Source: a virus
Taxonomy: Duplodnaviria > Heunggongvirae > Uroviricota > Caudoviricetes
Length of the DNA stretch: 19,806 nt
Direction: 5' to 3' (one strand)
Virus record (IMG/VR): IMGVR_UViG_2711768067_000013
Location: 1 to 19,806 of that record
A program made the position numbers and the translations under genes. The notes beneath the pieces were generated by a model. The model was not told the DNA's origin, did no database searches, and worked only from the letters and a program-made list of their open reading frames with translations. Shown here one piece after another: positions 16,926 to 17,982 of the stretch. Numbering within the stretch: position 1 is the first letter of the stretch; every line of letters starts with the position of its first letter.

Positions 16926-16958
16926 CGTAGCACGTTCTTGCATACGACGTGGCTACGG
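16926..16958. repeat. Degenerate second copy of the pin terminator hairpin (direct repeat of 17947-17982), flanking the GIY-YIG gene on the left
   Basis: cgtagcacgttcttgcatacgacgtggctacgg aligns with ccgcagcacgatcttcttgcatacgacgtgctacgg, with small indels. Confidence 0.5.
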
Positions 16959-17150
16959 GTTTCGAGACCGCTCCAATCATCAAACGAAACATAAAATTAA
17001 TTCACATTATGAGGAAAAGTATCTTTTTTATACTATGTAAATTCAAAGGCTTAGCCTCATTTCCCCGATGGTTTTCTCAACACTACTGGTTGTGAGCCCT
17101 TGCAATGTTCATTAATATACGTCTCACAAATAATTCATAGATATTGCAAA

Positions 17151-17924
17151 ATGGATATTACTGAGTTTCCTTCTGGAGTAATTGAACACCTTGGCTGGTA
17201 TGTATACCGATTGATTGATCCGAGGGACGGAAGCACCTTCTATGTAGGGAAAGGCAAAGGTAACCGCGTATTTGCCCATATGCGCGGTGAAGTGGCAGCG
17301 ACTGATGATGACGAGTTACTGAGCAACAAGCTAAAGCAAATTAGAGAAATAAGGTTAGCAGGACTTGAGGTTATCCATGTCATCCATCGACACGGAATGA
17401 CTGATGAAAAGACGGCGTACGAAGTTGAAGCAGCACTTATTGATGCCTACCCTGGGTTAACGAATATCATGAATGGTGCTGGCAGCAATGAATTCGGCGC
17501 CGCGCATGTCAAAGAGTTGATAGCAACATATCAACCCGAAACCATAACATTTCATCATAAAGCATTAATGATTTCCGTTAACAGAAGTGCAAAGGATTCA
17601 GAGCTTTATGATGCGGTTCGATTTAGCTGGCGCATTAATGTCTCTCGCGCCAGCCAAGCAGAAGTCATTCTTGCTACTGTAAGGGGGATCGTTCGAGGGG
17701 TTTTCATTGCTGATAAATGGCTCAAATCAACACGTGAAAATTTCCCTACGATGAAATACTGGGACGAGGATCCGGACTTTGAGGCAACACAAAGTTCTCG
17801 CTATGGTTTTGAAGGTCGAGAAGCCCCACCTGAAATAGCAAATCTTTATCTTGGAAAAAAAATACCAGATGAATTAAGAAAAAAAGGAGCTATGTCCCCG
17901 GTCCGTTACTCACCTAATTTTTGA
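17151..17924 (+). CDS. GIY-YIG nuclease-domain protein (~257 aa) with an uncharacterised C-terminal domain
   Basis: Motifs GWYVYRL and [14 protein letters not shown], then [19 protein letters not shown]. The track ORF starts at TTG 17100; the first ATG is at 17151 with a weak RBS. Confidence 0.7.
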
Positions 17925-17940
17925 GTCTTTAAGTGATAAG

Positions 17941-17982
17941 CATAAACCGCAGCACGATCTTCTTGCATACGACGTGCTACGG
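17941..17982 (-). terminator. Rho-independent terminator of the pin gene
   Basis: On the minus strand CCGTAGCACG pairs with CGTGCTGCGG (one mismatch) around a 16-nt loop, followed by TTTATG; begins 2 nt after the pin stop. Confidence 0.5.

Follow-up and report, generated by a model that had tools for sequence, protein, structure and literature searches.

Lambdoid phages reportedly carry morons, units of a promoter, a gene and a terminator inserted between phage genes, and the P2 and P4 families of prophages and satellites are said to harbour hotspots of defence genes. The stretch of DNA analysed here, 19,806 nt of a tailed phage (IMG/VR record IMGVR_UViG_2711768067_000013, positions 1 to 19,806) and hereafter called the window, contains a comparable unit: a cassette carrying the gene for the GIY-YIG nuclease PD-T4-3/CMoRE, flanked by two copies of a hairpin and adjoining the DNA invertase gene pin. 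It resembles a lambdoid moron in that one accessory gene comes with its own leader and ends in a stem-loop, that its GC content is below that of its neighbours, that it lies beyond the tail-fibre genes and that it serves the lysogen; it is also accessory and absent from close relatives, as morons are, being present in 852 of 5426 complete Escherichia coli genomes. Unlike the lambdoid units, it ends in a stem-loop that is the resident hairpin of pin or of the tail-fibre assembly gene tfa, shared in a convergent arrangement, and its upstream boundary is the fossil of an attachment (att) site. We consider it likely that the cassette is a moron with a defence function, set in a prophage cargo region that grows by accretion, that it came from a phage integrated at the tRNA gene serU and was joined to the end of a second phage, and that the hairpins mark the joints of recombination between phages.

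Two other systems offer parallels. The arrangement recalls pinE-mcrA in the e14 element of E. coli K-12, where a type IV restriction gene likewise lies directly beyond the pin invertase and near the prophage att site, among variable cargo; this hairpin core, however, is missing from e14 downstream of pinE, and mcrA encodes an HNH enzyme unrelated to PD-T4-3. Similarly, in the manner of the lambda gal and bio transducing phages, a fixed 344 bp segment of the host chromosome accompanies the cassette to other places, thrW among them, although the captured piece is short, non-coding and now a fossil, and its excision is an event that we infer.

The identity of the protein is well defined. The 257 aa product matches the PADLOC profile for PD-T4-3 (PDLC04031; 2.4e-140, residues 1-256 of 256 profile positions) and, across residues 1-257, the PDB entries 9U75 (3.7e-172, 253 of 257 residues or 98% identical) and 9U7U (1.1e-150). 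The reference at 253 identical residues is the E. coli O157:H7 enzyme, from which the window protein is separated by four substitutions and by no other difference at the protein level. A Pfam search returned LEM-3_GIY-YIG alone (residues 28-110) and no DNA-binding module of the NUMOD or IENR type, and the three tyrosines of the GIYxY-YIG motif, Y17, Y19 and Y31, are present in the translation and alignment (G15-W-Y17-V-Y19 ... F-Y31-V-G). CMoRE, for which crystal structures have been solved and this three-tyrosine motif described, specifically cleaves DNA containing 5-hydroxymethylcytosine (5hmC) or its glucosylated form (5ghmC), degrades T-even phage DNA and is expressed from its native upstream region (PMC12923530); PD-T4-3/CMoRE is active in its native host, where it protects against T-even phages (10.1101/2024.12.20.629700). 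The C-terminal half of the window protein corresponds to the modification-sensing domain of CMoRE, and the predicted product is a known anti-phage type IV restriction enzyme, not a homing enzyme. The leader, which is linked to the gene in every context seen, probably contains a promoter, with a sigma-70 match of 8 of 12 consensus positions that was recognised by eye and falls under the threshold of a promoter scan, which found none above it. Full-length homologues of the protein with 39-46% identity (H121-H137), some of them labelled as homing nucleases in annotation, are encoded by jumbo phages of Serratia, Pectobacterium, Pantoea, Klebsiella and Pseudomonas, and may serve there in inter-phage competition against phages containing hydroxymethylcytosine.

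The two hairpins that an initial annotation of the window had placed around the GIY-YIG gene are both present where it had put them (Table 1; A on the left, B on the right). They share an exact 17 nt direct repeat, TTCTTGCATACGACGTG, at 16935-16951 and 17960-17976, 1025 nt apart; with up to three mismatches allowed, this core has two matches in the whole window against 0.04 expected, and one of 200 shuffled sequences gave two. Each core sits inside a stem-loop of about 34-36 nt, and the likeness of the copies reaches into both stem arms, with a 3 nt indel in the loop, a 1 nt bulge and two arm substitutions separating them and (G)TTTC following both. Copy B is placed between the stop codons of the GIY-YIG open reading frame (ORF; 17922-17924) and of pin (17985-17987, minus strand). 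Stable hairpins are predicted for both copies, B at -22.5 kcal/mol on the pin strand (z -5.0) and -16.3 on the plus strand, A at -21 to -22 kcal/mol in a shifted register, and copy B is moderately T-rich beyond the stem in both directions. The one indication that the hairpin may mark a transcript end is indirect, namely the same hairpin at the 3' end of CssrB (RF02799, Shigella chromosome-encoded small RNA B) elsewhere.

Copy A is preceded by a conserved non-coding sequence of about 62-165 nt, here called U, and the two together form a very widespread, unannotated conserved element of about 100 nt. U has a long form beginning at about 16770 and a core form of about 62-80 nt, common to HK97-like phages, beginning at about 16855-16863; two different left ends of U occur in different phages. 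U with hairpin A matches 3135 of the 5426 E. coli genomes, at up to seven places per genome, and also phages HK97, HK106, mEp and Stx phages, its position in HK97 being between the sib site and tfa. Viral contigs scanned for a 16 nt core of the hairpin gave at least 120 loci, most with U as the left flank. A wider 16-mer scan gave mostly chance matches in unrelated phyla, those of the hairpin family being in Escherichia and Shigella; further family matches were L142 (a Pantoea stewartii record, with arms that fit the stem), L207, L221 and L227. Among the matches listed, the right neighbours of the hairpin comprise the 3' end of pin, 3' ends of tfa, ea47 and a fragment of ssrA, among others, and its usual place is the 3' end of pin or of tail-fibre assembly genes. 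The initial annotation had allowed that its reading would fail if the repeats were a common dispersed element unrelated to the gene, and this applies in part only: over half of E. coli genomes have the hairpin, in most cases without the gene.

The hairpin is conserved as a structure and, in its loop, as a sequence. The stem is 95% paired, with double changes at three pairs and arm variants CCGCAGC/GCTGCGG, CTGCGGC/GCCGCAG, CCGCGGC/GCCGCGG and CCGTAGC/GCTACGG, and none of 500 shuffles reached the observed covariation score. The 13 nt loop is invariant and 62 nt of U (GTAAAATCGGTAACGGCTGGAAATCATTCAATACTCGCACTATCGAAAGTTCACCAGCC, within 16855-16934) nearly so, while the upstream neighbours of U vary and include sib in HK97, an ORF ending in ...ESADEWFVH (stop) and cargo genes. 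No compensatory pairs were detected in U with RNAalifold, its sequence being too conserved for covariation to show. Rfam has no family for U, and the hairpins of the window gave only partial, sub-threshold matches to the terminal hairpin of CssrB, the 140 nt body of which is absent from the window; a full CssrB match in a Qin-like prophage (L200/L204) ends at the hairpin, on the same strand as pin. Part of U is annotated by PGAP as a 'capsid protein' pseudogene, a label that looks spurious. HK97 (L002, 3087-3115) and loci L053, L070 and L097 have about 25 nt of the 3' end of pin (TCATTTATCTCC-CGAAACTCC) right after the hairpin and no invertase gene; this remnant is the fossil of a pin gene lost from between tfa and sib.

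Alleles with and without the cassette form a series. The single-hairpin alleles lacking the GIY-YIG gene that the initial annotation proposed to look for do exist: U, one hairpin and pin follow each other without interruption in L004, L005, L076 and at least about 15 further viral loci, and one variant of this empty allele alone occurs in 274 complete genomes, giving at least 274 empty genomes. In L076, the 5' arm of the single hairpin is that of copy A, and its 3' arm and pin flank are those of copy B. Among the 852 genomes with the cassette, the commonest context (431) is a serU relic without hairpin A; 246 have a junction with an EcoRII/Dcm insertion, in which hairpin A is reduced to its 3' 20 nt beside the serU fossil; and 116 have the window-type junction, in which U and hairpin A are fused to the last 17-18 nt of the serU core. 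There are thus at least three different left junctions, with a tRNA att fossil in all of them. The EcoRII/Dcm composite adjoins the genuine ssrA gene in some genomes, and elsewhere its ssrA 3' end is fused to another U-hairpin. Cargo at this fixed position beyond pin varies between Avs2, EcoRII/Dcm, an Mrr-like restriction endonuclease and a DUF4145 protein, and the cassette with its hairpin is also found beside lambda-type tfa/stf, ea47 or an acyltransferase in place of pin. In keeping with the discrete insertion suggested in the initial annotation, the block of about 1 kb is, relative to many related prophages, extra DNA exactly between the hairpin and the pin stop codon; the left junction is a tRNA att fossil and not a clean homing junction.

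In the serU-relic loci (L013, L015, L022, L024, L058, L060, L073, L098, L099, L113, L126, L238, L239 and L243), the cassette leader is preceded by TGGCGG...GAGACCGGTCC, that is, by the 66 nt 3' part of serU and its chromosomal downstream flank. Direct comparison with K-12 serU and ssrA was used to identify both fossils; the relic is identical to K-12 serU and flank, and L241 keeps the exact tRNA sequence GAGACCGGTCC. ARAGORN reported no tRNA in the window or in the serU- and ssrA-type loci, as expected for fragments. The relic is the same 344 bp block (278 bp of flank and 66 nt of serU) in every locus, including prophages at the thrW/pao locus, which points to a single imprecise excision from serU. 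At the junction, the reverse complement of the tRNA reads ...CCCCTACTCCGGTTTTCGAGACCGGTCC|GTTCAG, and the relic reads the same up to the breakpoint and then continues as |AATCATCAAACG into the leader; copy A of the window reads ...CGACGTGGCTACGGGTTTCGAGACCGCTCC|AATCATC, and the empty allele and copy B read ...CGACGTGCTACGGTTTCATTTATCTCC into pin. In L078 (5270-6962) an insertion of about 1.3 kb interrupts the 344 bp relic within the T-arm region of the tRNA and adds another layer of accretion at this place.

A fusion of the same geometry involves ssrA. In L006 and L244 the 3' arm of the hairpin is joined to the T-loop core of ssrA, and in both the serU and the ssrA fusions the retained part of the att site starts at the 7 nt loop of a tRNA-like arm. 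The crossover would have fallen in the shared (CTAC)..GGTTTC for serU and in TTCA for ssrA. The true ssrA attR has neither U nor hairpin, so that the ssrA fusion represents a second, independent event; the possibility that U, hairpin and ssrA core form a native attP was rejected on the same ground. The serU anticodon arm (16957-16968; reverse complement GGTTTTCGAGAC in the tRNA) also matches the pix half-site GGTTTGGGAGAA (18604-18615) at 9 of 12 positions, and DNA invertases are known to use quasi-sites; recombination by Pin at a pseudo-pix site was nevertheless rejected and the match taken as chance, as the central dinucleotides differ and there is no half-site on the hairpin side.

The right-hand side of the cassette has a different signature. 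Among the matches listed, PD-T4-3 is always associated with the 5' arm CCGCAGCACG, and its 3' arm varies with the right neighbour; CTACGG is the 3' arm in 47 of 49 pin-adjacent hairpins, whatever the 5' arm, and TCTGCGG accompanies tfa or ea47. Since the 5' arm goes with the left flank and the 3' arm with the right flank, exchanges fall inside the invariant loop, which bears out the suggestion in the initial annotation of recombination at the hairpin.

From these observations we infer the sequence of events and how the joint was made. The two hairpin copies would be two instances of a stem-loop that most E. coli temperate phages have at the 3' end of pin or tail-fibre assembly genes, usually with U. 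The cassette would comprise the leader with its promoter, the PD-T4-3/CMoRE gene and the stem-loop held in common with convergent pin. PD-T4-3 would at the start have been the att-proximal cargo of a serU-integrating phage, in the order pin, hairpin, PD-T4-3, attP-serU, and imprecise excision from serU would have left a short stretch of host DNA fixed at its side. The cassette may next have been linked, by one unequal crossover that was illegitimate or used short homology, to a second phage at its hairpin-U-cargo-integrase end. In the hairpin of that phage the breakpoint would lie at the edge nearest pin (...CTACGGTTTC), and in the serU core at the inner edge (...CTCCGGTTTTC); these two sequences share a microhomology of 4-6 nt. 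Such a crossover would duplicate the hairpin as a direct repeat and leave 17-18 nt of the tRNA core behind as a fossil. To the right of the cassette, exchange would have taken place inside the conserved hairpin loop, and later loop exchanges would have carried the cassette to lambda-type phages, the PD-T4-3 protein itself having no part in its own mobility.

Several points weigh against this history. No serU-integrated prophage with a junction running into yodB was recovered, all serU junctions being the 344 bp relic, so the ancestral state is deduced and not observed. The direction from serU relic to window type is a matter of parsimony, and a microhomology of 4-6 nt is weak evidence for any particular mechanism. 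Neither hairpin passes a simple scan for terminators consisting of a stem and a T run, and the loop and U are conserved more strictly than a plain terminator or linker role explains. With respect to enzymology the main rival is integrase recombination at a secondary site, because both breakpoints lie at a stem/loop boundary: the history would be the same, but the left joints would have been made by phage tyrosine integrases at a secondary attachment site, where a serU-type or ssrA-type phage would have integrated beside the hairpin of a resident prophage; the 3' arm of the hairpin and TTTC would mimic a core-type half-site and the start of the overlap, and the resulting tandem would have collapsed by homologous recombination in pin or tail genes. 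Both fossils start exactly at the border of stem and 7 nt loop (the serU anticodon loop TTTCGAG and the ssrA T loop TTCAACT), reportedly the usual place of strand exchange by tRNA-targeting integrases; the hairpin arm CTACGGT and the serU arm CTCCGGT are alike at six of seven positions, two independent events with two different integrases share one geometry, and the phage encodes RusA, which could resolve stalled junctions. We nonetheless regard such joints as unlikely: overlap identity is only 4-5 of 7, there is no second half-site right of the pseudo-site, and a microhomology joint would be expected at the same place because a GC-rich stem followed by a T-rich loop is generic to terminators and tRNA arms.

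The strict conservation of the 13 nt loop and the 62 nt of U, far beyond what a terminator requires, could instead mean that U and the hairpin are a dedicated exchange site for cassettes, served by a recombinase or nuclease of phage or host, as integron attC sites or the hairpin targets of IS200/IS605 are; neighbours differ on both sides, the arms recombine independently and several unrelated cargo genes end at the hairpin. We find this very unlikely, since no candidate enzyme accompanies the hairpin consistently, most hairpins are single instead of paired around cassettes, with no second hairpin found around the DUF4145 cargo of L014, and the left boundary of the cassette is an att fossil and not the hairpin core. 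Neither boundary has the R''/R' boxes (RYYYAAC/GTTRRRY) of integron cassettes, the only recombinases nearby are pin, the truncated phage integrase and the thrW integrase instead of a linked IntI, and unlike insertion sequences or miniature inverted-repeat transposable elements, the segment of about 1 kb has no terminal inverted repeats, target duplications or transposase, and the left end of U is not fixed. An identical stretch of 40 nt, moreover, suffices for homologous exchange of the phage Red/RecET type. The broader proposal that U and the hairpin are a recognised recombination or regulatory site for exchanging and stacking defence cargo, and not a passive terminator, strikes us as doubtful; in one version, tRNA-targeting integrases could reuse the 3' edge of the hairpin as a secondary attachment site, so that prophage ends accrete defence genes and att fossils. 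Least credible of all is the homing-endonuclease-like mobility raised in the initial annotation, in which the GIY-YIG protein would be a free-standing enzyme that cleaved the junction of hairpin and pin in the empty allele and inserted a copy of its own gene there. The protein does share with T4 Seg and I-TevI the GIY-YIG fold, the classic fold of homing nucleases, and a presence/absence polymorphism at a fixed intergenic site in phages, and distant jumbo-phage homologues are annotated as 'putative homing nuclease'. Unlike those enzymes, however, it belongs to a LEM-3/UvrC-like subfamily without a sequence-specific DNA-binding module and acts on modified DNA: the 98% identical CMoRE degrades only 5hmC or 5ghmC DNA (PMC12923530), whereas prophage DNA is unmodified. 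Homing does not duplicate its target, the commonest context lacks hairpin A, and the junctions are not uniform, with foreign att-derived sequence in all, including the tRNA fossil at the left junction of the window.

Table 1. Features of the window, with positions in the 19,806 nt stretch.
Feature	Positions	Strand	Basis or remarks
48 nt copy of the 3' part of tRNA-Thr thrW (to anticodon loop); distal attachment site, left prophage end	13599-13646	none	100% match to thrW and flank, L001 genome
Cargo gene, 293 aa, zinc-finger/restriction endonuclease-like region and PDC-M01B-like C-terminus	13952-14833	-	Weak Pfam matches; PADLOC PDC-M01B 6e-15; GC 31-39%
Truncated tyrosine integrase (fossil), 218 aa	14957-15613	-	Pfam Phage_integrase 8e-15
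Mrr_cat-type restriction endonuclease, cargo, 303 aa	15766-16677	-	Pfam PF04471 2.3e-5; PGAP 'restriction endonuclease'
U, conserved non-coding sequence preceding hairpin	16770-16924	+	BLAST breakpoints at query 169-177 and 76-87
Hairpin copy A	16925-16958	none	TCGTAGCACG-loop-CGTGGCTACGG; degenerate: bulged G, poor T tails in both directions
Fossil of serU tRNA-Ser(CGA) attachment core (anticodon stem-loop, GGGTTTCGAGACCGCTCC)	16957-16974	-	Fused to hairpin A via shared GGTTTC
Cassette leader with probable promoter	16975-17150	+	TTGTGA 17090-17095, 17 nt spacer, TAATAT 17113-17118
PD-T4-3/CMoRE, GIY-YIG type IV (5hmC/5ghmC-dependent) restriction endonuclease, 257 aa	17151-17924	+	PADLOC, PDB, Pfam
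Hairpin copy B	17947-17982	none	CCGCAGCACG-loop-CGTGCTACGG; 3' end common to convergent PD-T4-3 (+) and pin (-)
pinE, serine DNA invertase, frameshifted	17985-18546	-	ORFs 17985-18365 and 18274-18546; stops in translation
pix crossover site of invertible tail-fibre segment	18603-18622	none	20 nt inverted repeat, 95% complementary; partner 1.8 kb off in L001

The element hosting PD-T4-3 is an e14/SfV-like prophage with a Mu-type tail, integrated at thrW. The right half of the window is its end, with Mu-type baseplate and tail genes, an invertible tail-fibre segment and pinE, and in the L001 genome, which has the same region, intact thrW borders the integrase of the prophage at the opposite end. 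The frameshift in pinE means that the inversion switch is probably locked in the window strain; pin is intact in loci of the same architecture such as L241. From the thrW att site towards pin, the order is a 293 aa protein carrying a CxxCxGxG zinc finger, a truncated integrase, an Mrr-like endonuclease, U, hairpin A, the PD-T4-3 cassette and hairpin B. The integrase fossil corresponds to a 603 nt integrase coding sequence in the annotation of L001 and is full length (1215 nt) at the equivalent place in L006/L244. The Mrr_cat-type endonuclease and the 293 aa protein are likely to be two further defence cargo genes, the former adjoining the cassette in only six complete E. coli genomes. GC content is 31-45% in the cargo (42-44% in the PD-T4-3 cassette, 31-40% in the rest) against 49-53% in pin. 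The 5' end and promoter region of the Mrr_cat gene (16601-16795) are 89% identical to a fragment of phage P2-EC67 whose annotation includes a 'left inverted repeat'.

To the left, an integrative island of about 13 kb (528-13646) stands in tandem with the prophage, with thrW 3' fragments at 528-556 and 13599-13646. Its genes include a tyrosine integrase (612-1976, plus strand), a 'phage baseplate protein' (2057-2734, minus), a 613 aa hypothetical protein (2782-4623, minus) and a serine recombinase (11721-12278, plus), and strain FDAARGOS_1298 has the same island alone at thrW. Collinearity of the window with NZ_CM149871, which has pao genes on the left, was considered and rejected, the left 13.6 kb being a separate thrW island.

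As the gene itself is already characterised, the value of the locus lies in its genomic context, of which the papers on PD-T4-3/CMoRE consulted here give no account (PMC12923530; 10.1101/2024.12.20.629700). Literature searches on CssrB and on the pin/e14 hotspot returned nothing usable, and, in the literature consulted, how the cassette is built around att fossils, the role of the hairpin as a mosaic joint and the conservation of U and the loop seem to be undescribed. The locus is a record, at base-pair resolution, of a defence gene moving between temperate phages, with serU, ssrA, the truncated integrase and partial hairpins as its fossils, and is of use for mapping defence hotspots and annotating prophage ends. 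It represents an ordinary kind of event in an unusually clear record, and not a new kind of biology.

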